Positions 2,756 through 25,957 of a stretch of 64,000 nt of DNA are shown piece after piece. The position numbers were made by a program, and so were the translations under genes. The stretch covers positions 472,762-536,761 of the forward strand of contig WJMO01000006.1 in assembly GCA_014727915.1 (NCBI GenBank), in the 5' to 3' direction. The notes under the pieces were generated by a model that was not told where the DNA came from, ran no database searches, and saw only the letters and a list, made by a program, of their open reading frames with translations. How positions within the stretch are numbered: position 1 is the stretch's first letter; each line of letters begins with the position of its first letter. This stretch comes from Candidatus Altiarchaeales archaeon. Its GTDB lineage: Archaea; Altiarchaeota; Altiarchaeia; IMC4; SCGC-AAA252-I15.

Positions 2756-3439
2756 TCAGTTGCATATGGAGACGTTGGGAGAGTTCTCGCACAATAGCCG
2801 CTCTATCTCGTCCTTGTCCCTGAGGCCGCAGTAGGTGTTCCCCTCTATCACCGTGCACGGGTGCTCGCCCACGCCGTACACTTCAGCCAGAACGTTTACC
2901 GAGGACACGTTCAAGTCCGAGTCGAAGCTGAATATGGCAAGCTCCTCGTCTATCCTCTTGTTCAGGTGGTCTAGGACGTAGGCCTGGTCGTCGCATTGCT
3001 TGCAGTCCTCGCCGCGCCGGTAGAAGTAGAGTATGACCGTCTGGTCTATGTCGCATTTGTCCCGTACCTGGGTGAGAAGCGACAGGTACAGCACTTCCTG
3101 GCGGTTGAACCTCCTCTTCTGCTTCAGGTAGTAGGGGTCTGTCATGTACTCTTCCGTCAGCCGCTTGTAGAGCTCGATCTTGTCGCCTAGCCTCCAGATG
3201 TTCTGGTCCAACAACTCAAGCTGGGACTTCAAAGTGACGCAGGTGGCGTTCTCTCCGAACATGCGCATAAGCTGCGTCAACGCCTCCATCTCCTCCAGCG
3301 TGTCGATGGTGGCCTCCATCCTCGACTCCAGGTTGGCCTCCCGCTTCTCGTTGATGTAGACGTTGATCGAGTATATCACCACAAGGACAAAGACCGTCAA
3401 GACAAGGGCTTTGGCGAATATCCACCTGCTCACCTCCAT
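2756..3439 (-). CDS. Membrane-anchored thioredoxin-like protein with a CKQC motif, between the two GT2 genes
   Basis: N-terminal TM helix, a coiled-coil stretch, then the beta-strand VILYFY followed by CKQC, a thioredoxin-like CxxC context, plus further Cys pairs. Its start overlaps the stop of the upstream GT2 gene (3430-3439). Confidence 0.4.
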   Translation of the reverse strand: MEVSRWIFAKALVLTVFVLVVIYSINVYINEKREANLESRMEATIDTLEEMEALTQLMRMFGENATCVTLKSQLELLDQNIWRLGDKIELYKRLTEEYMTDPYYLKQKRRFNRQEVLYLSLLTQVRDKCDIDQTVILYFYRRGEDCKQCDDQAYVLDHLNKRIDEELAIFSFDSDLNVSSVNVLAEVYGVGEHPCTVIEGNTYCGLRDKDEIERLLCENSPNVSICN

Positions 3440-4677
3440 TTTACCTTCCTCCCCGCGAGGACAGAGTAAAAGGAGCTGAGCCAGAAGAACTGGTAGAGTA
3501 GGAAGAAGAAGATGAACCCTATGAAGCCCGATATGTTCTCCCTGAGCCTCCTGTGCATCACGCTCATGCTGGCCTTGGTCATCAAAGCGATTGACAGCAT
3601 GGAAGACAGCATGAGAAAGTGGAATATGCTAACCGTCAACAGGTCGAAGTCCAATATGTCAAATGGGAGCAGCTCGAAGTTCGTCAGGATCAGGTGTTTC
3701 ACATGCTGGAATATGTTGTTGGCCAATAGCCCGGCCGAGTATACGCCCATCAGCAGGCCCAATGTTATGGTCAGGTAGTTGAGGGGCAGGAAGAAGACGC
3801 CGAAGCAGCCGAGAGCCCGGTTGAACATGGTGTCCTTATGCTGCAGCAGGGTTATGAGGGATCCGCTGTACCACCTCTTCCTCTGCCTGTACAAACCGTT
3901 CAAGGTGGAAGGCACGATTGTGTAGACGCCTGTGTGGAGGGTGTTCTCTATCCTGTAGCCTGCCTTGTGTATCCTAAAGGCTATCTCCATGTCCTCCACT
4001 ATGTTGTGCTCGTCGAAGCCGCCAATCTCCAAGAGCATGGACTTCCGGTAGATGCTGAACGGCCCGGGGGTTACATGCATGGCATTCAGGTAGGAGAGTA
4101 TCTTGAGCGAGAGCGAGAGGCCGACCACGTATTCTATGTCGACTATCCTCTCCAAAAGGTTCCTGGGCTCGCTAACGTGAACGCGGACCGTCACAGCCCC
4201 GACGCCCTCGTCCCGGAACATGCCAACGGTCTTCTTCAATATGTCACTTTTGACCACGCTGTCAGAGTCCATCGTAGCAACATAATCCCCCTTGGCTGCT
4301 TCAATGCCCTCGTTCAGGGAGAACGCCTTCCCATGGTTTTCGCTCCGGTCTATGAAAACCGCCCGCATTTCTTTGTGGGAGGAGATGAAGTCTCTTATGA
4401 AATCAGAAGTCCGATCGGTGCTTCCGTCGTTAACGACTATAACCTCATACCTGCCCCATGGATAGTCCATGTCATAAAGCGACTGAAGGGCCGGTAGAAC
4501 CCCTTTTTCCTCGTTTAGAGCCGGAACTACAACGCTTACAAAGGGCAGGCTATCATCTGGTTCCCCATATGATTTCAGGTCCTCACGCTTCTCAAGCATG
4601 ATCAACAACACCAATGCTATGAAGTAAGTGGACAGGAACCATACGGTCAACGTTAATATGGAATACATCAAATCCAT
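3430..4677 (-). CDS. Family-2 glycosyltransferase, processive synthase type (paralog of 1474-2748)
   Basis: Motifs VVNDGSTDRT, MDSDS and QRKRWYSG (QxxRW), with N- and C-terminal TM segments. First gene of a three-gene minus-strand operon. Confidence 0.7.
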   Translation of the reverse strand: MDLMYSILTLTVWFLSTYFIALVLLIMLEKREDLKSYGEPDDSLPFVSVVVPALNEEKGVLPALQSLYDMDYPWGRYEVIVVNDGSTDRTSDFIRDFISSHKEMRAVFIDRSENHGKAFSLNEGIEAAKGDYVATMDSDSVVKSDILKKTVGMFRDEGVGAVTVRVHVSEPRNLLERIVDIEYVVGLSLSLKILSYLNAMHVTPGPFSIYRKSMLLEIGGFDEHNIVEDMEIAFRIHKAGYRIENTLHTGVYTIVPSTLNGLYRQRKRWYSGSLITLLQHKDTMFNRALGCFGVFFLPLNYLTITLGLLMGVYSAGLLANNIFQHVKHLILTNFELLPFDILDFDLLTVSIFHFLMLSSMLSIALMTKASMSVMHRRLRENISGFIGFIFFFLLYQFFWLSSFYSVLAGRKVKWR

Positions 4678-4756: not shown

Positions 4757-5329
4757 GTGTCGTCTATGGATGAGGACAGGCTAGAATTTAAGCGGCAGAT
4801 GGTCCATCTATTCAACGGATCGGTCATTGGAGGCCTCGTATACGCCCTAAAGCCCGTATACGGGCTTTGGATACTTGTGCCGCTGGTATTATCGCTTTTC
4901 ATATTGCACGCGGTCCCAAAGCTAACACCGGATTTGAAGGTGGCAAACCACTTATTATACCATTTTGAGCGTCGGAAGGACATAGACAACTTCCCCTTCA
5001 AAGGCGCCATATTCTACGGATACGGGATAATATTCCCAATAGTCCTCTTGGAGACAGAGTATGCGGTCGCAACCATACTCGTTTTGAGCGTTGGAGACGC
5101 CTTCAGCAACCTCGTAGGGAGGAAATATGGGAGGATAAGGATATTAGACAAGAGCATGGAGGGCACGCTGGGTTTCTTCTTCAGCGCATGGCTGGCAGCA
5201 TCCCTGCTAGTTGACCCAACCCACGCGCTCATAATGGCAGCAGTAGCTTCCGTAATAGAACTGTTCAGCTTCTGGGATGACAATATCACAATACCCTTAG
5301 GCCTCTCCCTGCTTGTTCAACTCCTCTGA
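4757..5329 (+). CDS. CTP-transferase-family membrane protein (CDP-archaeol synthase CarS-like or polyprenol/dolichol kinase-like)
   Basis: 190 aa, about 5 TM helices. Motif VLSVGDAFSNLVGRKYGR resembles the CdsA/CarS/dolichol-kinase cytidylyltransferase signature. Confidence 0.4.
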   Translation: MSSMDEDRLEFKRQMVHLFNGSVIGGLVYALKPVYGLWILVPLVLSLFILHAVPKLTPDLKVANHLLYHFERRKDIDNFPFKGAIFYGYGIIFPIVLLETEYAVATILVLSVGDAFSNLVGRKYGRIRILDKSMEGTLGFFFSAWLAASLLVDPTHALIMAAVASVIELFSFWDDNITIPLGLSLLVQLL

Positions 5330-5927
5330 CCCGGACCCTCCGGCCTTCAACGGTTAGCCTGCCCTCAACGTACCATTTCACCGCCTGGGGGTAGATGAGA
5401 TGCTCCTGCTCCAATATCCTGCCGGCAAGACTGTTGACGTCGTCGCCTTCGAGCACGGGAACAGCCGCCTGTACGATTATGGGACCGTGGTCGACTTCCT
5501 CGTCGACGAAGTGTACGGTGCAGCCTGAGACCTTGACACCGTAGTCGAATGCCTGCTGCTGGCCATGCACCCCCGGAAAAGACGGCAACAGCGCGGGATG
5601 GATGTTCATAAGCCTGTCCTTGAAAGCCCTTACAAAATAGGGGGTTATTATCCGCATGTAACCAGCTAGGAGAACCAGGTCAACATCGCGCTTCCCCAGC
5701 TCTTTCACAACTTCCTTGTCGTAGTCCTCCCGCGAAACATATCCGCTGGGGTCCAGGTGAAGGGATTCAATTCCGTGGCTCTCAGCCCGCTCCAACGCGT
5801 AGGCGTCCTTCTTGTCGGATACTACGACGACCACCTGGGAGTCGGGTATCCACCCAGACTCCACATTGTCTATGATGGACTGCAGGTTGCTACCCCCGCC
5901 GGAGGCCAGGACGCCGATTAGGGCCAT
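5286..5927 (-). CDS. purN: Phosphoribosylglycinamide formyltransferase (folate-dependent)
   Basis: N-terminal GVLASGGGSNLQ, a formyl-transferase core, and HPALLPSF-type motifs typical of PurN. Confidence 0.75.
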   Translation of the reverse strand: MALIGVLASGGGSNLQSIIDNVESGWIPDSQVVVVVSDKKDAYALERAESHGIESLHLDPSGYVSREDYDKEVVKELGKRDVDLVLLAGYMRIITPYFVRAFKDRLMNIHPALLPSFPGVHGQQQAFDYGVKVSGCTVHFVDEEVDHGPIIVQAAVPVLEGDDVNSLAGRILEQEHLIYPQAVKWYVEGRLTVEGRRVRVRGVEQAGRGLRVL

Positions 5928-6457: not shown

Positions 6458-7699
6458 AGGTCGATCCTGTCCCTCCACTTCCTTATGGCCTCTCCAGCAA
6501 CGTAGATGGAGCCAGTGATGAGCACTAGGTCGTCCTCGGATGCAATGGACAATGCGTGGTCGACCGCGTCGGACACGCGCTCAACCGGGACGCCGTCCGC
6601 GTGCTTGAGGATTTCGCACGCCCCAAGAGCCCTCTTCAAATCGGCTCTGGTGGCGATGAGCACGTCAGCCTCTGAAAGAAGCCCTATCATGGGCTTGTAT
6701 TCCTTGTCGGACATGAAACCCGCCACCACGACCAGCCTATCGTAATCCAGGGACCTTATGAAAGCCAGGGACTCACGCATACCCGCCGCGTTATGTGCTG
6801 AGTCAACTATTACCCTCGGGTTTTCCCGGACCAGGTCCAGCCTGCCGGGCCAATAGGCCTTCGGGACCGCTGACAGAATGTCACCACGCGTAGTGCCTAA
6901 CTCTTCTGCTGCTGAGACCGCGCAGGCAATATTCAACGCCTGGAAGCCTCCGCGCATGGGAGACCTCAGCACATAGGATTCCCGGCCGGTCTTCATCTTG
7001 AACGAAACACCATCAAGGGAGGACTCGACATCACATAGGACTACATCCCCCCCGACCTTAACAACCCTTGAACCCCGCTCAGCCGCCGCGGAAGATATTA
7101 TGTCCAATGCCTCCCCGGACGCAGCGGTCACAACCACCGACCCGCCGTGGATTATCCCTGCTTTCTCGACGGCGATCTCGCCGACTGTCGAGCCTAGATA
7201 GCTGGTGTGGTCGATCTCGACGTTCGTTATCACCTGGAGCTTCGACTCCACCGCATTGGTCGAGTCCAACCTGCCGCCCATCCCAACCTCCAAGATAATG
7301 ACATCCACGCGCTCGTCGGCGAAATGCTTCAACGCCAACGCTGTGGTGGCCTCGAAGAAAGTGGGCTTGGAGCCCATAGAATCAATATGTGGCTTCAACC
7401 GCCCTGCCAATTCCGCGAACCTCTCCCTGTCGATCTGCACACCATCCACGCGAACACGCTCCGTGAAGTCGATCAACTCGGGTGAAGTGTAGAACCCAAC
7501 CTTCCTGCCCGACATGCGGAGTATGGAATCCAACACACAGGCACAGCTACCCTTCCCATTGGTGCCCGCTATATGGACTATCTCACCGTCGAAACCGAAC
7601 CCCAAAGAATCCAAGAGATCGCGGGTGTTCTCCAATCTGAAACGGTAGCCAAGCCGCTCAAAACCGCGAAGATAAGACAACGCACCCGAGTAGTCCATC
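6454..7699 (-). CDS. folC: Folylpolyglutamate synthase / dihydrofolate synthase
   Basis: P-loop HIAGTNGKGS and a Mur-ligase fold. Start reassigned to the internal ATG at 7699-7697 ([10 protein letters not shown]), which forms an ATGA overlap with the fhs stop. Confidence 0.75.
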
Positions 7700-9356
7700 A
7701 GAACAAACCGCTTATCACACCGTCGTCGTCGATGTCTATCACTTCGGCCGCAGGCCTCCTGGGCAACCCGGGCATGGTCATAACCTTCCCAGTCAACACC
7801 ACGATGAAACCGGCGCCAGCCGACAAATGTATCTTCTTGACCGTTATCTTGAAGCCGTCCGGCCTCCCCAGCAATGTTGAGTCGTCGCTGAGGCTCTTCT
7901 GGGTCTTGCTCATGCAAACCGGGAGCTTGTCCAGGCCCTGGGCCTCCAGCTCCCGGATCTCATTCAACGCCCTCTCAGTGTATGTCACGCCGTCAGCCCC
8001 GTATATCTCCCGGGATATGGCCTCGATCTTCTCCCTAATGGGCTTGCCAGGATCATAGAGGAACCTGAAATCTGACTTTGACTTGGACGCCTTAAGCACT
8101 GCCTCAGCCAGCTCCAAACCGCCGTCGCCCCCCATGGAATGCACCTCCGACAGCGCGCAGTCGACCTTCTTGTCCCTGCACCTCCCCAGCACAAAGTCGA
8201 CCTCAGCGTCCGTGTCAGTGGCAAACCGGTTGACTGCAACAACCAAGGGCACATTGAACTTCAACACGTTCTCTATCTGCTTCTCCAGGTTAGGCCATCC
8301 CTTCTCCAACGCCAGCAAATCCTCCATTTCATATTCGCTGCATCCGCCATGGTGCTTCAACGCCCTCACCGTCGCCACCAGGACGACCGCGTCAGGCTTC
8401 AAACCCGCCTGCCGGCACTTGATGTCGAAGAACTTCTCAGCGCCCAGGTCCGCGCCGAACCCGGCCTCGGTCACGACAACATCCGCCAGCTTCAACGCCA
8501 TCTTCGTCGCCACCACGCTGTTGCACCCGTGGGCGATGTTAGCGAACGGACCGCCATGGATTATGGCAGGCCCGCCCTCCATGGTCTGCACCAGGTTGGG
8601 GTTGAACGCGTCACGCAAAAGGGCGGCCATGGCACCCTGGACCTTCAACTGCTCGACGGTGACAGGGTCGCCGAAGAACGTATAACCAACGACCATCCTG
8701 GCAAGCCGCTCCCTCAGGTCATGGTAGCTCTCAGACAGGCACAACACGGCCATGACCTCGCTGGCGGCGGTGATGTCATACCTGTCCTCCCGAGCCAGGC
8801 CAGAAGAGTCGGCCAAACCGACGAATATGCGGCGGAGGCTCCGGTCGTTCATGTCCGTGACTCGATGCCATCTGACACGGTTGGGGTTGATGTTGAGCTC
8901 GTTACCCTGGAATATGTGATTGTCCACGACCGCGGACAACAGGTTGTTGGCCGCGGAAACCGCGGGTATGTCGCCTGTGAAGTACAGGTTGATGTCCTCC
9001 ATGGGAAGCACCTGACTGTACCCGCCGCCGGCCGCACCGCCCTTGATGCCCATAACAGGGCCGAGGGACGGCTCCCTTATGCACAAAACCGCGTTAACGT
9101 CCTTCTTCCGAAGCGCCTGGGTCAAGCCGACGGTTGTGGTTGTCTTCCCCTCACCCGGGGGTGTGGGAGTCATCGAAGTAACTAGCACCAGCTTACCGTC
9201 CCTGTTCTTCTTCAGCCGCTCCAAGAGCTTAACAGGCAGCTTGGCCTTGAACTTGCCATATGCCATGAGATCATCGGGTTCCAGGCCCAAATCTCCCGCA
9301 ACCTCCTCGACAGGCCTCAGATCAACCGAATGCGCTATCTCAATATCAGATTTCAT
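7698..9356 (-). CDS. fhs: Formate--tetrahydrofolate ligase
   Basis: 552 aa. MKSDIEIA N-terminus and [15 protein letters not shown]-loop, with FTHFS family length and layout. Confidence 0.85.
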
Positions 9357-9427
9357 ATTTGAATAAGAAACAAGGGATGAACGCTTAAAAAGAAAACATA
9401 ATAACTATGCTTTCCATTAGATAGTAT

Positions 9428-11197
9428 ATGGCTGCTACGAGGAGGGTTGAGAGAATAGGATTTGACGGGGATCTGCCCAGGATCATAGCACACCCCGTGG
9501 ACGAGCAGATAGTCGTATTAAGGAACCCCGACGTGCCCTTCAGGAGGGATGGGAAACATGTTGAAGGCCCGGTGGTCATGACCCGCGGGGGCATAGGCTA
9601 CGTCGTCGGCAGCAACAGATTAGACGCCAGGGACGAAAGCCCTGAAAGAGCAGCCGAACTAGTCCGGATGAAGGATAGCATGGACCGGGGGGAGATCACC
9701 ATAACAACACCATATGATATCTACACCGGCGGACTTTTCGGGGACAAGAGCAAACTGGCGATCGTGTTCACAAGCGGGGGGGAAGGGTCGAGCATCGGAG
9801 TCAACAACGCGGAGGTCACACGGGAACTGAGCAGCACACACGTCGTCCTAGGAGCATGGCAGGGCTTCCAGGCAGGGGTGAAGACAACAGAGGAGTTCGC
9901 AAGACAGCTTACCGTGTTAAACGACCCGGCAACCACCGAGAGGATGAGCCGCACGGGAGGCTCCACCCTTGGAATGTCACGCACAAAGGTCAGATTCGAC
10001 TCCGAAAATCCAGAGGACATAGAGGCTGCTGAAAACCTCTTCACCAACGTGCGATACGTGGGCGTAGTATTCGGGAACGGGGGCGGAGACCACACACAGA
10101 ACTTCATGAACTTGTACCTGAAGGCGCAGGCAGAGGGGGCAAGCCAGATTGTCATAGGAGTGACGCCGAAGAGCATGGACAACGACCTGGCAATAAATTT
10201 AAACGACGGGACAATCGCCAACTCACTGATGCTGGGATTCCCAACAACCGCGTATGTTATGCGCCGGCACTTCCTGGACGAGATGCAGAGCGCAGCCGGA
10301 GCAGGACGCGGCACGGTGGGGTTCTTCTTCGGACGCGGAGCGGGATGGACCGTCCTGGGAGCCATAAGGAACGACATGGAATACAGGGAGAATATGCGGG
10401 AGGACGGCATATTGACGGCGGACATGGAGAACAAGATGGACAGCCTCGGACCGCGGACGATAGGATTGGTGCCCGAGTATCCGGTGTCAATACCCTACTT
10501 CGCAGCCTCGATTAACAAAATCTACAACGAGGGTAGCATAGACGGGCAGGGAGGGGAAGTCAGGGACAAGTTCGTCGGAGTCGCAGTATCCGAAGGCTTC
10601 ATGTTCACGGAACTGATCTCCGAATTCGAAAGGCTCACCAGGGAGAGGGAGGAGGGAAGGCTCACTGAAGAAATCGTCATCGAAAAGGTGTCCAGAAACG
10701 ATTTGGAAGACCTGATAGAGGACGAGAACGTCAAGAGGATAATGGGTGAAAACCCGGAGATGGCCAAGAAATTCTTCGAACAAGTGATGAAGCCCAAACT
10801 GGACGTCTGGGAACACCCCAAAGTTGACTTCGGACCCCAGTTCGTGCACGCGGTGATGAACAGCAGCCTAACGGACGTGCCGAAAAACAATTATGCAGAG
10901 ATAAAATACGAGGCGCGCACCGGAGAGACCGTACCCGCCGACCGGGCCCTGGGAGAGGTCACCGGCAGGGTGGAAGCCGAGACTATAAGAGCCGGCAGGT
11001 CGGGGGTGACCACTGTGACTTATGAGGCGGGCGAAGACCCGTTACTGATAGACCCCCGCAAGCGGGGGGCAAGCTTCATACCCTTCGAGGACATAGCCGG
11101 GATGAGCGAAGACCAGAACAACCTAAGGACTTTGGACCCCAACTACCTCAGAAAGCTGGGGATACTCATCGAACCCCATTTTGAGATGCCAGCCTAA
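9428..11197 (+). CDS. Phosphofructokinase-A family protein, divergent long form (possibly PPi-dependent), substrate uncertain
   Basis: PFK motifs recognisable but altered: FTSGGEGSSIGVNNA (for TSGGDAPGMNAA), GNGGGDHT (for GGDGS), PKSMDNDL (for PGTIDNDI), RTGGSTLG, VMRRH (for MGR). Extra roughly 90-aa N-terminal and 200-aa C-terminal extensions. Confidence 0.55.
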   Translation: MAATRRVERIGFDGDLPRIIAHPVDEQIVVLRNPDVPFRRDGKHVEGPVVMTRGGIGYVVGSNRLDARDESPERAAELVRMKDSMDRGEITITTPYDIYTGGLFGDKSKLAIVFTSGGEGSSIGVNNAEVTRELSSTHVVLGAWQGFQAGVKTTEEFARQLTVLNDPATTERMSRTGGSTLGMSRTKVRFDSENPEDIEAAENLFTNVRYVGVVFGNGGGDHTQNFMNLYLKAQAEGASQIVIGVTPKSMDNDLAINLNDGTIANSLMLGFPTTAYVMRRHFLDEMQSAAGAGRGTVGFFFGRGAGWTVLGAIRNDMEYRENMREDGILTADMENKMDSLGPRTIGLVPEYPVSIPYFAASINKIYNEGSIDGQGGEVRDKFVGVAVSEGFMFTELISEFERLTREREEGRLTEEIVIEKVSRNDLEDLIEDENVKRIMGENPEMAKKFFEQVMKPKLDVWEHPKVDFGPQFVHAVMNSSLTDVPKNNYAEIKYEARTGETVPADRALGEVTGRVEAETIRAGRSGVTTVTYEAGEDPLLIDPRKRGASFIPFEDIAGMSEDQNNLRTLDPNYLRKLGILIEPHFEMPA

Positions 11198-11386
11198 CAA
11201 GATTGTCAGGTTAGGTTGTTGGGGTTCCCCTGGCAGTTGACGCCGTTTTTCATGTGTCAAAGCACACTATTTTTTTATTATCACATCACCAACCACAGAA
11301 TTACCCGCGAGCCCACCGTGTGGGCGCGCATCCATCACACTTTAGAGAACCCCAGAATAGCTATGGGAATACAACGATAAAAAGAC

Positions 11387-12931
11387 TTAGTGGAGGAAGC
11401 AGCGCACGCCGGTGAAGACCATGGCCATCCCATGCTCGTCCGCGGCCTTGATGACCTCCTCGTCCCGTATGCTGCCCCCCGGCTGTATGACCGCGGTGAC
11501 GCCGGCTTTCGCAGCCTCGTCGATGCCGTCACGGAAGGGGAAGAAGGCGTCCGACGCCATCACCGAGCCCTTGGCCAAATCCCCCGCCTTCATTGCGGCG
11601 ATCTTCACCGCGTCAACCCGGCTCATCTGGCCGGCCCCCACGCCAACGGTCCGGTCACTGTTTGAGAGGATTATGGAATTGGACTTGGTGTGCTTGCACA
11701 CCTTCCAAGCGAACAGCATGGCCTCTACCTCGTCGTCTGTGGGCTTTCGCTTGCCGACGGCCTTAAGGTCTGATTTCACTAAATCCTTCAAGTCGGTCGT
11801 CTGCAGCAGTAATCCGCCAACGACCCTGCGGACGTCCAATGCGTTCTTGTTGGCCTTCCTTATCTGCCCCACCTCCAACACGCGCATGTTCTTCTTCCTT
11901 TTCAATGTCTCCAACACCTCCTCAGAGTATGCGGGAGCGGCAACCAGCTCGACGAACGTGGAGGTGATGTCCTCAGCGGTCTTCGCATCCGGCTGGCGGT
12001 TCAACGCCACGATGCACCCGAACGCGCTAGTGGGGTCCGCGCTGTGAGCGAGCTCGTATGCTTTGGAGATGTTATCAGCCACACCCACACCAGAGGGGTT
12101 CAAATGCTTCACGATAACGGCTGCAGGGCGGTCGAACTCCTTCACCAGCTCCAATGCGCTGTTGACGTCTATGAGGTTGTTGAATGATAGGTGCTTGCCC
12201 CCCGCGACGAGGCGGGTCTTGGAGACTATTCCTTCCCCGGCGTTGTCATAGTAGTACGCGGCCATCTGATGGGGGTTCTCCCCATAGCGGAGGTCGTATG
12301 CTTTCTCAAGGTTTATGCTGAAATGCTGTGGGAAACTGCCGGGCTCGTACTCCTGACTCAAGTACCTGCTTATCGTCGAATCGTATCTTGCGGTGTGGCT
12401 GAACGCCTTGACAGCCAACGCATTCCTCGTCTCCCCCGAGACGCCCCCGGACTTTCGCATCTCCTCCAATACGAGCCCGTAGTCGGAGGGGTCGGTGACG
12501 ACTGTCACATGCTTGTGGTTCTTGGCAGCTGCGCGGACGAGAGTCGGGCCACCTACGTCTATCATCTCCAACGCATCATCCAAGGTTACATCCTCCTTTA
12601 GAATGGTCTGCTCGAAGGGGTATAGGTTCACCACCACCAGGTCTATGGGCTCGATGACCTGCTCCTTCAACTGGCGCATGTGCTCCCCGCTATCCCTCCG
12701 CGCCAGGATGCCCGCGTGGATCTTAGGATGCAAGGTCTTGACCCGCCCGTCCAGCATCTCAGGGGACTCGGTGACATCAGACACCCTTACGACAGGCAGG
12801 CCAGCATCAGACAACACCTTAGCCGTGCCACCGGACGATATCAGCTTCACCCCGAGCTCATGAAGGCCCCTGGCAAAATCCACAACACCGTCCTTGTCAT
12901 ACACGCTGAACAACGCAGTCGCAGCCTTCAA
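11387..12931 (-). CDS. purH: Bifunctional AICAR formyltransferase / IMP cyclohydrolase
   Basis: 514 aa. MGS-like N-domain (SVYDKDG..LISSGGTAK) followed by an AICARFT domain. Confidence 0.85.
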   Translation of the reverse strand: MKAATALFSVYDKDGVVDFARGLHELGVKLISSGGTAKVLSDAGLPVVRVSDVTESPEMLDGRVKTLHPKIHAGILARRDSGEHMRQLKEQVIEPIDLVVVNLYPFEQTILKEDVTLDDALEMIDVGGPTLVRAAAKNHKHVTVVTDPSDYGLVLEEMRKSGGVSGETRNALAVKAFSHTARYDSTISRYLSQEYEPGSFPQHFSINLEKAYDLRYGENPHQMAAYYYDNAGEGIVSKTRLVAGGKHLSFNNLIDVNSALELVKEFDRPAAVIVKHLNPSGVGVADNISKAYELAHSADPTSAFGCIVALNRQPDAKTAEDITSTFVELVAAPAYSEEVLETLKRKKNMRVLEVGQIRKANKNALDVRRVVGGLLLQTTDLKDLVKSDLKAVGKRKPTDDEVEAMLFAWKVCKHTKSNSIILSNSDRTVGVGAGQMSRVDAVKIAAMKAGDLAKGSVMASDAFFPFRDGIDEAAKAGVTAVIQPGGSIRDEEVIKAADEHGMAMVFTGVRCFLH

Positions 12932-15326: not shown

Positions 15327-15478
15327 GGGCCTGTAGCCTAGCGGATAAGGCGACAGCCTTCTACGAGCCCCTTTCTTTTAAAAAAAGAAAGGTGCTTCAC
15401 CCCCAAAGAAAAAAATAGGGTGGTGAGGAAGGGTTCGGGGATAGCTGTAGATCATGGGTTCGAATCCCATCAGGCCCA
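15327..15478 (+). tRNA. tRNA-Arg (anticodon TCT) with a 79-nt intron at the canonical 37/38 position (intron 15364-15442)
   Basis: Hand-folded cloverleaf: acceptor GGGCCTG/CAGGCCC, D-arm GCCT-AGCGGATA-AGGC, anticodon stem ACAGC/GCTGT with loop CTTCTA|A, 5-nt variable loop, T-arm ATGGG-TTCGAAT-CCCAT, discriminator A, no encoded CCA. The intron holds a perfect 9-bp hairpin CTTTCTTTT-aaa-AAAAGAAAG. Confidence 0.7.
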
Positions 15479-15490
15479 CAAGAATTTTTT

Positions 15491-16966
15491 ATGTTGGGGT
15501 TAAGGGGTTTTATTTCCATCATTTTAATCCCTAATATGCGCTTATGTTGTCTGATAGTCCTTATCCTCATTTTCTCAGGCTGTATGGGAGGATATGACAA
15601 AACAGAAGAATCAAAGCCAGACAATTATTGTGAAACCGATCGAGATTGCAGCCCTCTCGGATGTTGTTGTCCTAAAAAATGTACGGGTTCAGTATATGCC
15701 AGCCAGTACTATTATGAAAACTGTAAAGGGAAACCCTGTCCAGAAGTAGTATGTAACCCTGTTGTGACATGCACTTGTGAAAATAACATGTGTAAAACAC
15801 ACAAAGATAGTGTATTCAAAAAAACCACTTCATCAACTCAATCCACCACGACAACTTTGAAGATTGGGACTGATTATTCTGAACTAATCCACATGTATAC
15901 TGACAAATTCGACTCAAACAGTTCTATAATCAAATGCCAAAATGATGATGACTGTATCTTAGTCCCAAATATTGGTAGTTGTAATGCTGGTGGCATAAAT
16001 ATAGCCATCAATAAGGATTTCCAAGAGGGGTGGAACAAGCAACTAAATGAAGAACGTAGAGGGATGGTGTTTGCAGGAGTCATGTCGCAGCATTCATCAT
16101 GTTTCTCAAATCCAGTTTGTAACGATAATAAATGCACGACTGAGATTAACAATACAATGATTTGCAGTCAACAGGATATTCGTGGAAACTGTGAAAATCC
16201 TGCATATGCGAATAACTGGAAAAAGGAACTGGGTATACGATGTGAAGATCTTAATGCAATATGTCAGTGGGGGATAGGGAATATCAATGCATCAGACTTC
16301 ATAAATTGGGATGAGAACTTCGGGTCGTGGGGGGATGAATACGGGACATTCATCCAACTTAGAGATTTTAGCGGATATGAGTACGACCTAAACTCCTCGG
16401 TGGACGAAAAATTAAAGGTCTACGCATTACGTCGTGAGAAAAGCAGGAATATATCAAAGGAGTTCATAGCTTTCCTGAAGCAGTTGGATGTGAGTATAGA
16501 TGAGGATAGGAGTTTCGGGAAGATAATGGTTGTCGGAGGACGAAAAGATGACATGCAAAAGGTCATCTTCCACCCCTATGTCGAGTCATATTCCAGAGAT
16601 AACCCGGGATTCCCGGAGGATATTTTCACAGAAACTGAGCTGAAATATTGCATGACTGATGATGACTGCATAAGTATTGAAGCATATAGGAATGGATGTA
16701 CGGCCGGTGGGACATCAATACCCATGAATAAAAAATTCAAGGAGTATTGGACCGATAAGAGATTGTCAGATACTCTTTTTACAGGAACTACTGGGGTGCT
16801 ATCCTTCCATTGGTCCTGTTTTGCAATCCCAAAATGTCTGAACCATAGGTGTGCATTAGTCAATACAACGTGTTCAAGTCCTGAGGATTGTGACGGAGGA
16901 TACTACTACGAAAAGTTCAGTGAAGGAATAATATGCAAAGACAATAAATGTTATGGGGATATTTAG
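15491..16966 (+). CDS. Cys-rich secreted (lipo)protein with two internal roughly 70-aa repeats (CxxDDDC...AGG...NK.F.E.W...SCF..P.C module)
   Basis: Signal peptide with an FSGC lipobox-like motif. Paired segments CQNDDDCILVPNIGSCNAGGINIAINKDFQEGW... and CMTDDDCISIEAYRNGCTAGGTSIPMNKKFKEYW.... N- and C-terminal Cys knots. Low-GC codon usage. Confidence 0.5.
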   Translation: MLGLRGFISIILIPNMRLCCLIVLILIFSGCMGGYDKTEESKPDNYCETDRDCSPLGCCCPKKCTGSVYASQYYYENCKGKPCPEVVCNPVVTCTCENNMCKTHKDSVFKKTTSSTQSTTTTLKIGTDYSELIHMYTDKFDSNSSIIKCQNDDDCILVPNIGSCNAGGINIAINKDFQEGWNKQLNEERRGMVFAGVMSQHSSCFSNPVCNDNKCTTEINNTMICSQQDIRGNCENPAYANNWKKELGIRCEDLNAICQWGIGNINASDFINWDENFGSWGDEYGTFIQLRDFSGYEYDLNSSVDEKLKVYALRREKSRNISKEFIAFLKQLDVSIDEDRSFGKIMVVGGRKDDMQKVIFHPYVESYSRDNPGFPEDIFTETELKYCMTDDDCISIEAYRNGCTAGGTSIPMNKKFKEYWTDKRLSDTLFTGTTGVLSFHWSCFAIPKCLNHRCALVNTTCSSPEDCDGGYYYEKFSEGIICKDNKCYGDI

Positions 16967-17086
16967 GCTTCAAAAAAGGTTCTATTTTTGTCTAATAGTT
17001 GTTCCAGACTAACTTATAGTGACTATATATTGCAATAATCTATATTATAGATATCGAGAAAAATTATATATTGTAAAAGATATATT

Positions 17087-18256
17087 ATGAAAAGGAGTGA
17101 TTTTCCAGCCCCAAATGGCAGGTTTTCAAAGAATTCCGATGGAGACCTTACATTCATCCCAAACAGGATAATCCGGGATATTGAGGGACTATACTCTTCG
17201 GAGATAGTGAGCCTTCTTTCAAAGGCTGACAGGATGCTTGGTTCCCTGGACCGGTGTAGTCAAAGCGACCCGAACATTGACTTCCTCGTCGCGCCCTACA
17301 TACGGCTCGAGGCTGTCGCGAGCTCAAGAATCGAGGGGACTCAGACAACTTTAACGGACTACTACAAGCTGGAGGCAGAAAAGAAAGGGGAACACGACCC
17401 GGACTATATCGAGGTCAACAACTACATCAAAACGATGATGGCAGGCTTTGAGAGGGTCATTGGCGGACAAAAAATCGACCTCCCCTTCGTCAAATCACTT
17501 CATAAGACCCTTGTAGCGGGAAGCGAGCGCACAAAGGGGGTTCCCGGCCATGTCAGGACGAAACAGAACTGGATAGCCCCCATGAACTCGCCGATAGAGC
17601 TTGCGACATATGTCCCACCAGATCCAATTAAACTGGAGCCCCTGCTAAAGGATATGCAAGGATTCATCCTGAAAGACGATGACATCCCGCCGCTCATAAA
17701 GACGGCATTGATACACTATCAGTTCGAGGCGATACACCCGTTCGAAGACGGAAATGGGAGGGTCGGGAGAATCATCAACTCCCTCTACCTCGGCCAGGCA
17801 GGATGCCTCCACAGCCCGATCCTGTTTTTGAGCTTCTATTTCCAAAAGCACAGGGACGAATACTGGGCGAGGTTGTTGAGGACCAGCCAGCAAAGCGACT
17901 TCGACGGATGGCTTAGATTCTTTTTGAAGGGCATTATAGAGCAATCGCAAAGGTCTATAGAGCTTTCAAACAAGATAGAAGGGTTGCATACCAGCTATCA
18001 GGAACGTCTTGAGAAAAAGAGGGTCACAGCGACCACATTAAAGGCTTTGAGGCTGCTTTTCACAGGCAACCCATTCGTGTATATGACCGAGCTTGCAAGG
18101 GAGCTGGACGTCCATCTTCCGACGGCAAAGAAGGCGATAACACAGCTTGAGAAAGAAGGCATCCTGAAGCAATCAAAGGTCAAAAAGCCAGCAATCTACT
18201 TCGCCCCCGAGATAATAGATACATTACGGAAGGCTGAAAAGGAAATGCTCAAATAA
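17087..18256 (+). CDS. Fic/DOC family protein (probable AMPylator) with a C-terminal winged helix
   Basis: Canonical Fic motif HPFEDGNGRVGR (HxFx[DE]GNGRxxR). 389 aa. Confidence 0.8.
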   Translation: MKRSDFPAPNGRFSKNSDGDLTFIPNRIIRDIEGLYSSEIVSLLSKADRMLGSLDRCSQSDPNIDFLVAPYIRLEAVASSRIEGTQTTLTDYYKLEAEKKGEHDPDYIEVNNYIKTMMAGFERVIGGQKIDLPFVKSLHKTLVAGSERTKGVPGHVRTKQNWIAPMNSPIELATYVPPDPIKLEPLLKDMQGFILKDDDIPPLIKTALIHYQFEAIHPFEDGNGRVGRIINSLYLGQAGCLHSPILFLSFYFQKHRDEYWARLLRTSQQSDFDGWLRFFLKGIIEQSQRSIELSNKIEGLHTSYQERLEKKRVTATTLKALRLLFTGNPFVYMTELARELDVHLPTAKKAITQLEKEGILKQSKVKKPAIYFAPEIIDTLRKAEKEMLK

Positions 18257-18522
18257 CGCTCACAAGGACGCAAAAAAGGGAGTACGTACTGGTGGGGTGG
18301 TCAGGCATCAGGCCCGCATCAAATTAGATTAGACCAGGGGTTCGAACGCTCGGAAACCGAAGGTTTCCGGCGCGCCAAAATCCGCAGGCTTTTGAGCGTC
18401 CCATCAGGCCCGATACAGGATAATAATTGGGTGAGTGTTTGCTTGAGGCCGAAACACACTTTTTTTCCGTTGGAAAAAACCGACCCAGCTGGCGCAGGGA
18501 ATAAAGACCCGAGTCAGGTGTG

Positions 18523-19128
18523 CTAGAATGCTCTTGCCACAATAACCGAGGCAGCTGACAACAGAAGAGTTAGCACTGGCATGCAAACACACGCAGTATC
18601 GGCTGGTCTATCGGGAGAGGGAACAGTTGATGATGGTTTTCGGGCGGGGTATTTCGCTTCGTTTATGATTTCAAATGCTGCGGTTTTTGTCTCGTCCTTT
18701 TCCGGGTTTAATATGCTCACATCAAGTGTGTAGTAGACGCCATCAGAGTAGAAGTCGAAAAAACACTGTTCCTCGTCGGAGCCCGCCATTTCACATATGT
18801 AATATAGAGTGTGGCCAGAGTATGTGGCCTTTCCCACATTTCCCTGTTCATAGCCTTTTTTTAGGTCAGTCCATTCCGAGCTGCTCATATGTTGTTTCTC
18901 GAAGATGGCGACGATCCTATCGTCTGTTGAAGCATAGGATCTGCTGTTCAGGCTTTCCTCAACCATGGTCAGGTCTAATGCTGGCACATGGTCAGGGAAG
19001 GTTAGTTCGGCGACCGCCGGTGGTGAAAGGATGAGGAGTGCGAGGATGGCGAGATTGGAATGTTTCAGCATATAGAATGATTTGAGGAAGTGAATAAAAA
19101 ACCCAGATTCTGCCATCAACACCCACAA
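18523..19128 (-). CDS. Secreted protein with a C-terminal hydrophobic anchor
   Basis: Signal peptide (probable start at 19071, MLKHSNLAIL...), a C-terminal TM segment, and a basic tail. Confidence 0.35.
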   Translation of the reverse strand: MWVLMAESGFFIHFLKSFYMLKHSNLAILALLILSPPAVAELTFPDHVPALDLTMVEESLNSRSYASTDDRIVAIFEKQHMSSSEWTDLKKGYEQGNVGKATYSGHTLYYICEMAGSDEEQCFFDFYSDGVYYTLDVSILNPEKDETKTAAFEIINEAKYPARKPSSTVPSPDRPADTACVCMPVLTLLLSAASVIVARAF

Positions 19129-19182
19129 TACAGAAATCCCATTAAATATTTTTTTATATTGAATATTGCATTAGATAATGTC

Positions 19183-19620
19183 ATGAAAATAGGTTTAATC
19201 CTGGGTTTGGTGATGTTAGCCTCTGGGTGTCTCTGCTGCTGCAGTGGGGGATCTGACTATGGAGACTATGACTATGATGATTGGGATGCACCAACGGATT
19301 ATGCGGCAGCTACGGTAGCCTCTCCCAGTGGGGGCCCCAGGTTGGACTGCCTAGACGGGCATACACTCAATGACATCATGTGCTACAAGGCAGGGGGTGG
19401 GATTTCAACGGATGCCAGCCTCTGCAAGCAGATAGATGATCCGATTGGAGTTGCCGCATGCCTTGGTGGTGTGGCAGCAGTTAAAGACGATCCTAGCCTA
19501 TGCAGTCAAAGCAGGGGGGACTTGCATGATTTCTGCGTTGACGTATCCAATAGCAACTTCGCAGGAGAAACGGCAGGTAGCTTGGAGGAGAAATATCCCT
19601 TCCTGAAGCGGTGGGAGTAG
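19183..19620 (+). CDS. Cys-rich secreted lipoprotein with D-x-x-x-C repeats
   Basis: Start moved to MKIGLILGLVMLASGC (lipobox-like). A TATA-like tttttatatt sits about 30 nt upstream. Repeats of the form C..IDDP...AC / C.QSRGDLHDFC. Confidence 0.45.
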   Translation: MKIGLILGLVMLASGCLCCCSGGSDYGDYDYDDWDAPTDYAAATVASPSGGPRLDCLDGHTLNDIMCYKAGGGISTDASLCKQIDDPIGVAACLGGVAAVKDDPSLCSQSRGDLHDFCVDVSNSNFAGETAGSLEEKYPFLKRWE

Positions 19621-19903
19621 GGCGTTCATGGATATCCTGTCACCGGTATTTAACCTTTGTTTGCCTAAGTTCTTGTCATAATGGCGGATAGGATGTGGAC
19701 CTACCCTGAGTTGAGGTTTGTCTTCGTCAACCAGTTGAAGTACACACCCCAGGAGTTGGCCCTGCATGTCAATCGGGAGTTCCACGATGGGGATGACGTG
19801 AGGAGCGCCGTTGACATAGAGAATATCAAGAGGGGCAGGAACATATTCAACAAAGACCAGGGCTTCTGACCGCTTTTAATTCTGTTGTTTCTTATGAGTT
19901 ACG

Positions 19904-22283: not shown

Positions 22284-23444
22284 ATGATCGGGAGGAAGAG
22301 CATTGAAGAGGTTGTTGGAGGATACGACGGGGAAGATGTTAAGGTCGGGGTTCTAGCATCCCACAGCGCGTTGGATGTGGCTGAGGGCGCGGTAGCTGAG
22401 GGGTTCCGGACGGTGCTCTACTGCCAGAAGGGACGGGAGAAGACCTACGCAGAATACTTCAAAGCCCGGCGTGACGGCGAGGGTAACCTGGTGCGTGGAG
22501 TGGTCGACGAGGCCAGGGTCTACGGCAAGTTCAGGGAGATGGTATCCGAAAAGGAGCAGGAGAGGATGAAGGAGGATAACGTGCTTTTCATACCCAACCG
22601 TTCCTTCACGTCATACATTGACCTCAAGACCATCGAGGATGACTTCAGGGTGCCCATGGTGGGTTCGAGGAACATGCTGAGGAGCGAGGAACGGGGTGAG
22701 CAGCAGGACTACTATTGGCTTCTCGAAAAGGCGGGGCTGCCGTTCCCGGAGAAGATTGACAACCCAGAGGCCATTGACGACCTTTGCATTGTTAAACTAC
22801 ATCACAAACAAAAAAGGTTGGAGAGGGGTTTCTTCACCTGCAAGAGCCAAGAGGAATACGAAGAAAAATCCGCCCAGCTGATAAAAGACGGGGTTATAAC
22901 AGCTGATGCGCTGGAGCATGCGCGAATCGAGCGGTACATCATCGGCCCCGTCTTCAACCTGGACTTCTTCTACAACCCCTTGGAGGATGAGTTGCCTAAG
23001 ATCGAGCTCTTGGGCGTTGATTGGAGGTTCGAGTCCTCACTGGACGGGCATGTGCGGCTGCCCGCAGCCCAGCAGATGGAGCTGGTGGGCACGAAGCAGG
23101 AGATACCTGAGATGACCGTCTGCGGCCACAACAGCGCAACACTGCGAGAGTCGCTCTTAGAAAATGCCTTTGACCTGGCTGAGAAGTTCGTGGAAGCCAG
23201 CAAGGAACACTACAAGCCAGGTATCATAGGGGCTTTCTGCCTGCAGACCTGCGTGGACAAGGACCTCAACTACTACATCTACGATGTCGCCCCGAGAATC
23301 GGAGGGGGGACGAACGTTCACGTGGCGGTCGGCCACCCCTACGGGAACGCGCTGTGGAGGAAGGAGATGAGCACCGGCCGACGCACCGCCCAACTCATAA
23401 GGGAGGCTGTGGAGCAGGACCGGGTGAATGAGATAGTAACCTGA
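22284..23444 (+). CDS. purP: 5-formaminoimidazole-4-carboxamide ribotide synthetase-like (PurP family, ATP-grasp), paralog 1
   Basis: N-terminus VGVLASHSALDVAEGA..GFRTVLYCQKGREKTY and C-terminus YIIGPVFNLDFFYNP...LLGVDWRFESSLDG match my recollection of the archaeal PurP (DUF1246+DUF1297) layout. Paralogous to 24875-25957. Confidence 0.55.
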   Translation: MIGRKSIEEVVGGYDGEDVKVGVLASHSALDVAEGAVAEGFRTVLYCQKGREKTYAEYFKARRDGEGNLVRGVVDEARVYGKFREMVSEKEQERMKEDNVLFIPNRSFTSYIDLKTIEDDFRVPMVGSRNMLRSEERGEQQDYYWLLEKAGLPFPEKIDNPEAIDDLCIVKLHHKQKRLERGFFTCKSQEEYEEKSAQLIKDGVITADALEHARIERYIIGPVFNLDFFYNPLEDELPKIELLGVDWRFESSLDGHVRLPAAQQMELVGTKQEIPEMTVCGHNSATLRESLLENAFDLAEKFVEASKEHYKPGIIGAFCLQTCVDKDLNYYIYDVAPRIGGGTNVHVAVGHPYGNALWRKEMSTGRRTAQLIREAVEQDRVNEIVT

Positions 23445-24874: not shown

Positions 24875-25957
24875 ATGGTTGCTGTAGCTGAAGTACACCG
24901 GATTCTCGACGATTACGATCACAGCAGCGTCTCCGTAGCCACCATCGGCAGCCATAGCGCATTGAACATCTTCAAGGGAGCGAGGGAGGAGGGTTTCAAG
25001 ACCGTGTGCATCTGCAAGAAAGGAAGGGAGAAGACATACAACCGGTTCGGGCTGGTGGACGATTACATCATGATAGACGACATGAACGACACCGCCTCCG
25101 AGGAAGTGCAGGAGAAGCTCAGGGAATTGAACAGCATCGTAATACCCCACGGTTCCTTCAACGCCTACATAGACCAGGCTAGGATGGACGAGTTCAGAGT
25201 GCCCATAATGGGCAACCGCACGCTGTTGGAGGTGGAGACCTCACGGGTCAAACAGCACGATTGGATGAGGTCCGCGGGTTTGAAGGTCCCGAAGATATTC
25301 GAGTCCGCCAAGGACATCGAGGAACTGGCTTTCGTCAAATTTCCAGGGGCGAAAGGTGGGAAGGGCTACTTTGTGGTGGACAGCGAGGCAGCCTTCAAGA
25401 AGAAGATGAAGCTTATGCTCAAGAAGAATCTCATAACCAAGGAGGAGGCCAAGAACCCCTATATACAAGAGTACATAATCGGCGTGAACGCCTACCCCCA
25501 CTACTTCCACAGCCCGTTGAGGGATGAGACTGAGTTCCTCGGCGTGGATAAGAGGTATGAGTCGAGTGTGGACGGCGTCTTCAGGATACCGGTGCCAGAG
25601 CAGATAGGGCAGGAGATAAGCCCAACATTCAGCATCGTGGGCAACTTCCCCATGGTGCTGAGAGAATCGCTTTTGGATGAGATATTCGACATCGGCGAGA
25701 AGATCGTGAAGGAAAGCGAGAAACTCGCCCCTCCAGGGCTTATAGGCGCCTTCTGCCTTGAAGCCATCATAAAGGAGGATCTGGAGATAATAGCCTTCGA
25801 GATATCCTCTAGGATCGTGGCCGGCTGCAACGCCCTGATAGGGAGCAGCCCATACACATACCTGATGTACAATGAACCGATGTACATGGGCAAGAGGATA
25901 GCCAGGGAGATAAAAGAAGCAGTCAAAGAAGACAAACTCAAAGAACTGGTAACCTGA
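24875..25957 (+). CDS. purP: PurP-family FAICAR synthetase-like protein, paralog 2
   Basis: VATIGSHSALNIFKGAREEGFKTVCICKKGREKTY ... YIIGVNAYPHYFHSP...FLGVDKRYESSVDG. Collinear with 22284-23444 over its full length. Confidence 0.55.
   Translation: MVAVAEVHRILDDYDHSSVSVATIGSHSALNIFKGAREEGFKTVCICKKGREKTYNRFGLVDDYIMIDDMNDTASEEVQEKLRELNSIVIPHGSFNAYIDQARMDEFRVPIMGNRTLLEVETSRVKQHDWMRSAGLKVPKIFESAKDIEELAFVKFPGAKGGKGYFVVDSEAAFKKKMKLMLKKNLITKEEAKNPYIQEYIIGVNAYPHYFHSPLRDETEFLGVDKRYESSVDGVFRIPVPEQIGQEISPTFSIVGNFPMVLRESLLDEIFDIGEKIVKESEKLAPPGLIGAFCLEAIIKEDLEIIAFEISSRIVAGCNALIGSSPYTYLMYNEPMYMGKRIAREIKEAVKEDKLKELVT

Follow-up and report, generated by a model that had tools for sequence, protein, structure and literature searches.

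The 64,000 nt stretch of Candidatus Altiarchaeales contig WJMO01000006.1 (assembly GCA_014727915.1, positions 472,762 to 536,761), referred to below as the window, carries a gene for a divergent member of the PFK-A superfamily of phosphofructokinases (PFK). The gene is a complete open reading frame (ORF) at exactly the position given in an earlier, sequence-only reading of this DNA, with an ATG start and 589 codons followed by a stop. Its product is identical to NCBI 'hypothetical protein' GF416_06330 (MBD3388667.1 / MBD3416732.1), encoded on a 536-kb contig of a Candidatus Altiarchaeales metagenome-assembled genome (MAG). The G+C content near the gene is 0.56-0.57, the same as in the neighbouring genes, and archaea-typical genes are found elsewhere in the window (TiaS, Nre, GatD, deoxyhypusine synthase and PurP). 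The window protein and its orthologues are referred to as clade A, and the sister group as clade B. Features of the gene and its product are as follows.

9428-11197, + strand: divergent PFK-A superfamily gene, complete ORF, 589 amino acids (aa) plus stop
9428-9757, + strand: N-terminal extension, residues 1-110 (about 107 aa, from the clade-A alignment and the model)
9770-9805, + strand: glycine-rich phosphate loop T115-SGGEGSSIGV-N126, corresponding in the alignments to E. coli TSGGDAPGMN
9971-9982, + strand: G182-M-S-R185; R185 corresponds to E. coli R72 and is invariant in 57/57 aligned PFKs
10079-10102, + strand: G218-G-G-D221-H-T-Q-N225; G220 replaces D103, D221 lies at G104 and N225 at G108
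10163-10189, + strand: T246-P-K248-S249-M-D251-N-D253-L, the catalytic PKTIDND block, with Lys at 124 and D251 corresponding to the catalytic base D127
10259-10270, + strand: M278-R-R-H281, an invariant helix motif specific to clade A, one helix before FGR
10328-10348, + strand: F301-G302-R303-GAGW within FFFGRGAGW, the true equivalent of M169-G170-R171; R294, upstream, corresponds to R162
10370-10444, + strand: two-helix insertion of about 25 aa, residues 315-339, between FGR and the conserved VPE motif (P349-E350)
10586-10597, + strand: V387-S-E389-G390; E389 corresponds to E222
10607-10825, + strand: helical insertion of about 70-78 aa between E389 and R497, with four predicted helices and a short hairpin
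10907-10924, + strand: Y494-E-A-R497-T-G, corresponding to E. coli GHIQRG and to GYEGR of the Borrelia pyrophosphate (PPi)-dependent PFK; R497 corresponds to R252, and N488, upstream, replaces R243

Family membership and fold

Despite being barely detected by curated libraries, the window protein is a member of the PFK-A superfamily, and the deeper evidence from profiles, a hidden Markov model (HMM) and predicted structure is unambiguous. The best NCBIfam match was the PPi-PFK model PRK14072 (37.2 bits, E 1.4e-9), far below its cut-off of 273, and a second sub-threshold match was to NF041103 (34 bits). No match was reported for the window protein to TIGR02477 or PRK07085 (cut-offs of 588 and 446 bits), the cut-offs of TIGR02477, PRK07085, PRK14072, PRK06555 and NF041103 were reached by neither it nor its orthologues, and no clade A or clade B protein scanned reached an NCBIfam PFK cut-off. 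The search with Pfam PF00365, proposed in the sequence-only reading, gave a divided outcome: the window protein had no match at E<=1 (gathering threshold 30.9 bits) and neither did its orthologue P0010, while three other clade-A orthologues passed (P0002, 47.7 bits; P0006, 46.8 bits; P0009, 31.4 bits). Because some orthologues pass this threshold, clade A straddles the Pfam annotation boundary.

A single-sequence search of the PDB with the window protein matched one chain, the PPi-PFK 3k2q (E 0.002), and a profile of nine orthologues recovered the PPi-PFKs 3k2q, 3hno and 1kzh along with the T. brucei PFK, the best again being 3k2q (E 2e-6). A custom HMM, built from canonical PFKs only (E. coli PfkA, PRK14072-type proteins and bacterial PFKs of ~345-380 aa), aligned to residues 111-529 at 68.8 bits. 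The AlphaFold2 model, computed from a 57-sequence alignment, had a mean predicted local distance difference test score (pLDDT) of 91 and a predicted template modelling score of 0.90; since canonical PFKs were part of the input, model and homology inference are not independent lines of evidence. It shows the two Rossmann-like domains of the PFK fold, and the top Foldseek matches were all PFK-A enzymes, beginning with the PPi-PFK of T. vaginalis (E 2e-16); next came PFKs from Borrelia, T. brucei, Nitrosospira, Prometheoarchaeum and, with TM 0.80 normalised on 1PFK, E. coli. The longest structural alignment was with the Borrelia PPi-PFK (1kzh), and no solved structure aligns with about 210 of the residues. 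The PRK14072 match, the 3k2q profile match, the custom HMM and the Foldseek results together bear out the earlier description of a divergent, long-form PFK-A family protein, and a non-PFK reading of the empty Pfam scan is overruled by the profile, HMM and structure evidence.

Conserved motifs, added segments and phosphoryl donor

Residues were mapped to E. coli PfkA (the reference sequence is identical to 1PFK) by MAFFT and, independently, by hmmalign to the canonical-PFK HMM, and the two agreed. The equivalences, E. coli residue first, are:

G10-G11, G117-G118; D12, E119
R72, R185; G101-G102, G218-G219
D103, G220; G104, D221; S105, H222; G108, N225
P123-G124-T125-I126-D127-N128-D129, P247-K248-S249-M250-D251-N252-D253
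R162, R294; M169-G170-R171, F301-G302-R303; E222, E389
R243, N488; H249, Y494; R252, R497; G253, T498

The members of the catalytic set R72, T125, D127, D129, G170-R171, E222 and R252 are found as R185, S249, D251, D253, G302-R303, E389 and R497, all of them invariant in clade A save G302, which is Ser in 2/9. Across 57 diverse PFKs including the window protein, G117, G118, R185, G218, G219, K248, D251, D253, E389 and R497 are invariant and G302 and R303 nearly so. The nine orthologues, which share 48-58% identity with the window protein, have ~140 invariant columns. To judge from these alignments, the residues needed for PFK-type phosphoryl transfer are all present and under purifying selection.

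Three of the altered signatures described in the sequence-only reading proved right in both MAFFT and hmmalign: TSGGEGSSIGVNNA (residues 115-128) stands for TSGGDAPGMNAA, GGGDH (residues 218-222) for GGDGS, and PKSMDNDL (residues 247-254) for PGTIDNDI. The glycine loop TSGGEGSSIGVN is two residues longer than TSGGDAPGMN, and its G117, G118, E119, G124, V125 and N126 are invariant in clade A. The fourth signature had been misplaced. MRR(H) at 278-281 was taken for the MGR motif, and it sits in the preceding helix; three alignments place MGR at F301-G302-R303, where Gly and Arg are conserved, and in the alignment with 3hno MGRHAGW stands opposite FGRGAGW. Unusual is the way three features are combined: position 103, that of the Mg2+ ligand, lacks Asp, the glycine loop is longer, and R243 has given way to Asn.

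The window protein is about 270 residues longer than E. coli PfkA, and the excess is spread over extensions, insertions and some minor insertions at other places. There is indeed an N-terminal extension, of ~107 aa rather than the ~90 aa first proposed; residues 1-23 are predicted to be disordered and residues 24-105 to form a small beta/alpha module, which is conserved within clade A from P17 on, while homology to clade B starts at about residue 81. The C-terminal extension of 200 aa that had also been proposed does not exist as such: core motifs run on to E389 and Y494/R497, and the added length there consists of internal insertions and a tail of ~25 aa. A separate C-terminal domain of about 200 aa is ruled out by the equivalents of E222, H249 and R252 at 389, 494 and 497, and the model shows insertions. 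The two-helix insertion at 315-339 carries an invariant N335-K-M-D338. The larger helical insertion has predicted helices at 394-408, 414-422, 433-441 and 443-454, and its hairpin carries D459-x-W461-x-H463, a D-x-(F/W)-G-H element that aligns with DAFGH of 3k2q. An insertion of ~10 aa at 372-382 (nt ~10541-10573), with the 9-aa Gly-rich sequence SIDGQGGEV and low pLDDT, occurs only in the window orthologue. Residues 193-201 include a 6-aa acidic insertion, likewise found in the window orthologue alone among clade-A members.

Three structurally equivalent positions are linked to the phosphoryl donor in a 2025 review of PFKs (section 9 and Table S3; PMC12203962). In solved ATP-PFKs they are G104, G124 (Lys in T. 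brucei) and G108; solved PPi-PFKs carry Asp and Lys at the first two and something bulkier than Gly at the third, namely D177/K203/N181 in Borrelia, D115/K141/T119 in Nitrosospira and Marinobacter, and D115/K139/S119 in T. vaginalis (PMC12203962). In the window protein these positions are D221, K248 and N225, the PPi state at all three, and all are invariant in clade A; N225 corresponds to Asn181 of Borrelia. At 104 and 108, where Gly leaves the pocket for the alpha-phosphate and adenine of ATP open in ATP-PFKs, D221 and N225 stand, and the equivalents of Gly104 and Lys124 singled out in the sequence-only reading (D221 and K248) are both in the PPi state. Because all three determinants are in the PPi state, PPi is most likely the donor, as had been suggested from the same residues, which match the D/K/non-Gly pattern of the solved PPi-PFKs. 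The register of GGGD is confirmed by 3k2q, in which D115 of GGGDS is the listed determinant. The first Asp of GGDD (position 103) is replaced by G220, also invariant in clade A. The implication that GGGD is a novel mutation did not hold, as the same GGGD(S) is found in the PRK14072-type PPi-PFKs 3k2q and 3hno, both with Gly at position 103; other PRK14072 members have Asn there.

The closest described proteins share different parts of this design. PRK14072-type enzymes (~400-420 aa; Marinobacter 3K2Q and Nitrosospira 3HNO), which gave the best NCBIfam and PDB matches, have in common with the window protein the GGGD register with Asp at 104 and Gly at 103, PK(T/S)(V/M)DNDL, (M/F)GRxAGW, and D-x-(F/W)-G-H before the C-terminal helix. 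The window protein is, however, ~170 aa longer (N-terminal extension and helical insertions) with two more residues in the glycine loop, and R243 is kept in those enzymes but is Asn here, whereas R162 is lost there and kept here. The Borrelia burgdorferi PPi-PFK (1KZH/2F48; TIGR02477/PRK07085 type) is of similar size (555 versus 589 aa), has the same residues at each of the donor positions, Asn at 108 among them, and has a comparable YE-x-R motif (GYEGR versus KYEAR), but reads GGDD where the window protein has GGGD. It carries a 70-residue N-terminal extension, an insertion of four helices and a hairpin, and a C-terminal extension (PMC12203962), a plan of decoration that the window-protein model resembles by topology and aligned-length counts only. 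With E. coli PfkA (1PFK) the window protein shares the fold and R72, T/S125, D127, D129, G170-R171, E222 and R252; it differs in the donor positions (G104/G108/G124 versus D221/N225/K248), in its ~270 additional residues and at the allosteric E187, which is not conserved (T344 or R343 by alignment).

Two clades and their gene order

Clade A is rare: some 11 sequences are known, from Altiarchaeota where the source is named and otherwise from metagenome contigs. Nine of its proteins were found among 5.8 billion clusters, a search of 1.84 billion representatives (23 matches at E<=1e-3) gained one further orthologue, and 241 million JGI records added one short contig with the same context as locus L007. 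Among 185,579 GTDB species representatives, two have clade A. Clade-A proteins deposited at NCBI are named 'hypothetical'. Clade B came to light as the second PFK gene on contig L001 of an Altiarchaeota MAG (GCA_043800705.1) and is ~25% identical to clade A; it has ~65 close members (E <= 1e-65 among 255 matches) in Altiarchaeota, Omnitrophota, Peregrinibacteria and Gracilibacteria, usually named '6-phosphofructokinase' by NCBI. A neighbour-joining tree, crude and prone to long-branch effects, pairs the two clades as sisters (bootstrap 95%), with a long stem leading to clade A.

Members of clade B (e.g., P0039, the second PFK gene of GCA_043800705.1) resemble clade A in length (~450-580 aa), in having an N-terminal extension and a helical insertion between EG and YEAR, and in F-G-R-x-x-G, (A/S)EGF, YEAR(G/T), K124, S125, N243 and Y249. 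They differ in the glycine loop (TGGGDCAGIA, versus TSGGEGSSIGVN in the window protein), at position 103 (N or D versus G), in reading KSIDGDG rather than KSMDNDL, and at the R162 position (Q versus R). In 6/17 clade-B relatives, position 104 is Gly, within a GGNG motif. Clade B also passes PF00365 (70 bits) and is named as PFK, whereas the window protein falls below and is 'hypothetical'. PFK domains of the clade-B type are joined in single proteins to a class II fructose-bisphosphate aldolase (P0020, 1037 aa), to a starch-synthase GT5 domain (P0030, 751 aa) and to a HAD/sucrose-6-P-phosphatase (S6PP)-like domain (P0029, 983 aa), and lie inside the giant proteins P0013 (5040 aa) and P0017 (5534 aa), the latter apparently with two PFK-like domains by motif scan only; errors of assembly or gene calling could account for some of these. 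Because a clade-B-type domain is fused to the aldolase, a Rosetta-stone argument would place the superclade of A and B at a fructose- or ketose-bisphosphate node.

The PFK gene lies among genes for one-carbon (C1) and purine metabolism, and the identities given to these neighbours in the sequence-only reading were as inferred there:

5286-5927, - strand: purN
7698, - strand: ATG that is the real start, by orthologue alignment, of a folC-like (Mur-ligase family) gene downstream of fhs
7698-9356, - strand: fhs
9357-9427: intergenic region of PFK and fhs, 71 bp, A/T-rich, divergent
11198-11386: intergenic region of PFK and purH, 189 bp, convergent, with a T-run at ~11270-11277
11387-12931, - strand: purH
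beyond purH, - strand: folD and glyA

About 40 nt upstream of the PFK ATG, TTAAAAAG was picked out by eye as a possible archaeal TATA element. Both fhs and purH lie on the other strand, so the gene is not co-transcribed with them, and it looks like a transcription unit of its own. The fhs stop and folC ATG overlap as TGATG (7696-7700, - strand), an arrangement suggestive of translational coupling. Taken as the longest ORF (from TTG at 7917), folC is 73 codons too long and falsely overlaps fhs by 220 nt; orthologues align only from residue 71-73.

A collinear block of ~15 kb, running from a family-2 glycosyltransferase (GT2) gene through purN, folC and fhs to purH, folD and glyA, is common to the window and to L001 and L008. 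Between fhs and purH, the window has clade A, L008 has clade B and L001 has both. There (L001:10001-14514), the order from fhs to purH is clade A (579 aa), a DUF362/ferredoxin gene and clade B (563 aa), the two PFK genes being ~25-28% identical, ~1 kb apart and on the same strand. The DUF362/4Fe-4S ferredoxin gene between them is on the opposite strand with its 3' end overlapping that of the clade-A gene; in L008 the same gene instead overlaps the end of the clade-B gene, and at the fhs-purH slot of the window there is none. The L008 clade-B gene (L008:8001-9743) is divergent from fhs, in the same position as clade A in the window, and a third clade-B gene (L010:8001-9734) is kept near fhs and glyA. 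A tblastn search within the 64-kb window found no clade-B copy. Five other clade-A loci have unrelated neighbours, and at one of them the clade-A gene is directly upstream of an archaeal phosphoglycerate mutase gene. The position that had seemed unexpected for a glycolytic enzyme is indeed between fhs and purH, but the slot is a conserved one for PFK-like genes in a subset of Altiarchaeota; the co-occurrence proposed for checking recurs in L001 and, with clade B, in L008, and breaks down at the five other loci. Nothing here points to a functional link with C1 or purine metabolism.

Between the window and L001, clade A is 48% identical while Fhs, PurH, FolD and GlyA are 58-72% identical; the clade-B proteins of L001 and L008 share 73% identity, and the flanking proteins of the window are 58-77% identical to those of L001 and L008 (FolC, 51-57%). 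Clade A evolves faster than its neighbours. Our reading is that a PFK gene beside fhs is probably ancestral in this Altiarchaeota lineage, and that clades A and B would have arisen by local duplication and then been differentially retained, with clade A changing faster. The whole block is collinear, so common descent explains why C1 and purine genes lie next to the PFK gene, and the location looks like inherited gene order and not an operon. A role as part of a C1/purine operon is ruled out by the strand orientation and by the variable context at the five other loci.

Other genes of the window are also of interest. Two purP genes lie further downstream of folD/glyA; they are paralogous DUF1246/DUF1297 genes (22284-23444 and 24875-25957, both + strand), taken as PurP (formate-dependent FAICAR synthetase). 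This putative pair lies ~10 kb from the folate-dependent purH and purN, and the genome seems to encode formate/ATP-dependent as well as folate-dependent routes for the purine formylation steps. From ~15400 to 19700 the G+C content drops to 0.44-0.49 (versus ~0.55 elsewhere), in a region with a 491-aa protein lacking a Pfam match, a Fic/DOC protein with a C-terminal MarR-like helix-turn-helix (17087-18256) and short hypothetical proteins, which may be an acquired islet between glyA and a TMEM260-like/TPR gene. Two ribonucleotide reductase genes occur within 20 kb: one (35029-37170, + strand) encodes large-subunit barrel, all-alpha and ATP-cone domains and is putatively class II, and the other (52724-54928, + strand) encodes an anaerobic class III NrdD with ATP-cone domains. 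A pair of GT2 genes with weak chitin-synthase-like matches (1474-2748 and 3430-4677, both - strand) lies on either side of a small hypothetical gene. It is conserved in the window and L008 (L008:1-2561), in both cases upstream of purN-folC-fhs, and L001 shows one such gene, at the locus edge.

Proposed reaction, alternatives and significance

Because the residues of PFK-type transfer are present and under purifying selection, the window protein is taken to be an active enzyme. Our preferred reading, held with moderate confidence, is that it would be a catalytically competent, reversible Mg2+/PPi-dependent ketose-phosphate 1-phosphotransferase of a highly divergent PFK-A type. The reaction would be fructose-6-P + PPi <-> fructose-1,6-P2 + Pi, possibly also with sedoheptulose-7-P; fructose-6-P is the most likely acceptor and, as in other PPi-PFKs, sedoheptulose-7-P a possible one. 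By homology, D251 would act as the general base on the C1 hydroxyl, R185 and R303 would stabilise the transferred phosphoryl group, and S249 and D253 would complete the catalytic block. The sugar phosphate would be held by E389, Y494, R497 and R294, and PPi positioned by K248 and D221, with D221 and N225 predicted to occlude the site for the alpha-phosphate and adenine of ATP.

Several observations weigh against this assignment. The Pfam scan of the window protein was empty, the NCBIfam cut-offs were reached by neither clade, the structural model shares its input with the homology argument, and the literature yielded no biochemical data for any clade A or clade B protein. Within the active site, Lys at 124 is not diagnostic alone, being present in the ATP-dependent T. 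brucei PFK (PMC12203962), and the two structures that share Gly in place of the Mg2+ ligand D103, 3k2q and 3hno, have no published biochemistry (PMC12203962, Table S3). The phosphate loop is not only two residues longer but changed in sequence, and its counterpart contacts PPi in the T. vaginalis enzyme; R243 to N488 and G253 to T498 mean that acceptor binding may differ. The low identity of clade A relative to the neighbouring proteins is also compatible with a change of function.

Such a change is the substance of the nearest alternative, in which the same PPi-dependent 1-phosphotransferase chemistry would be directed to a different acceptor after sub- or neo-functionalisation relative to clade B, fructose-6-P not being the main substrate. 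Candidates would be sedoheptulose-7-P (in a sedoheptulose-bisphosphate route replacing transaldolase), tagatose-6-P or another ketose phosphate. The coexistence of A and B ~1 kb apart in L001 argues against full redundancy; the long stem and faster evolution of clade A, the changes to N488 and T498 and the clade-specific invariant R279/R280 helix point the same way, and PPi-PFKs do phosphorylate sedoheptulose-7-P in Entamoeba and clostridia (PMC12203962; PMC7029132). However, N488 and Y494 are common to clade B and so do not distinguish the two, no residue code is known for preference between the two acceptors, and the window (64 kb) and L008 (~18 kb) each have one paralogue in the same slot, which fits interchangeability. 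We regard this alternative as unlikely, though worth keeping in view. Less probable again is dependence on ATP or another nucleoside triphosphate despite the PPi-like residues. Donor switches have occurred repeatedly in the family and Lys124 is compatible with ATP in T. brucei (PMC12203962), the glycine-rich loop is remodelled, and the GGNG motif with Gly at 104 in some clade-B relatives suggests that the donor may vary within the superclade. Yet neither Asp at 104 nor a non-Gly residue at 108 is found in any solved ATP-PFK (PMC12203962, Table S3), D221 and N225 do not vary in clade A, and N225 matches the Borrelia Asn181 that blocks adenine binding (PMC12203962).

Gene position enters into both of the remaining alternatives. 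Hetero-oligomeric PFKs exist (3opy and 3o8o were among the matches), and the pairing of A and B on one strand in L001, with A the more divergent, could indicate that clade A is a non-catalytic or regulatory subunit working with clade B, as in the alpha/beta PPi-PFK of plants or the alpha/beta PFK of yeast. This is very improbable: the catalytic and substrate-binding residues examined are all conserved, and do not vary in clade A, the 64 kb of the window and five other contigs have clade A and no clade B, and an opposite-strand gene separates the two in L001. A role tied to C1/folate or purine metabolism would draw on the recurrence of fhs-PFK-purH-folD in three loci and on an MTHFR gene ~5 kb upstream in L002, but we give it hardly any credence, given an orientation (divergent from fhs, convergent with purH) that leaves no co-transcription, a collinear block whose shared ancestry explains the adjacency, unrelated neighbours at five other loci and an active site apparently of the sugar-phosphate kinase type. 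As a wider and tentative proposal, which we think doubtful as a whole, the Altiarchaeota pair would stem from local duplication by fhs, with A having a distinct specificity (sedoheptulose-7-P or another ketose phosphate, or an unusual donor) or forming a hetero-oligomer with B, and the pair would supply the PFK step, or a bidirectional PFK/fructose-bisphosphatase step, that is missing from this CO2-fixing DPANN lineage according to genome surveys. The assignment preferred here remains that of a reversible PPi-dependent enzyme acting on fructose-6-P.

Altiarchaeota are described as carbon-fixing subsurface archaea, and among the products encoded in the window are Fhs, FolD and GlyA, enzymes of folate-dependent C1 metabolism. 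A PPi-PFK working near equilibrium could, in such a host, act in gluconeogenesis and in glycolysis alike. Literature searches on PFK or PPi metabolism in Altiarchaeota gave nothing specific. 6-Phosphofructokinase has been described as 'widely absent' in DPANN, with none listed for Altiarchaeota, and fructose-bisphosphate aldolase/phosphatase was found in only 52.7% of Altiarchaeota genomes (PMC8407392); bacteria of the candidate phyla radiation are likewise described as widely without 6-phosphofructokinase. At least some Altiarchaeota encode PFK-superfamily enzymes that are too divergent for threshold-based annotation, and neither clade A nor clade B is captured by a curated subfamily model. 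Structural knowledge of the PFK family is heavily taxon-biased according to the PFK review, and clade A is a new, unannotated and fast-evolving subfamily of this well-known enzyme superfamily. The A/B pair offers a natural experiment in PFK divergence, in which the phosphate loop has been remodelled, D103 lost and new decorations gained. The interest of these proteins is mainly for the metabolic reconstruction of DPANN and Altiarchaeota and for studies of PFK evolution, and if the window protein is a reversible PPi-PFK, reconstructions of upper glycolysis and gluconeogenesis would change for an autotrophic lineage.

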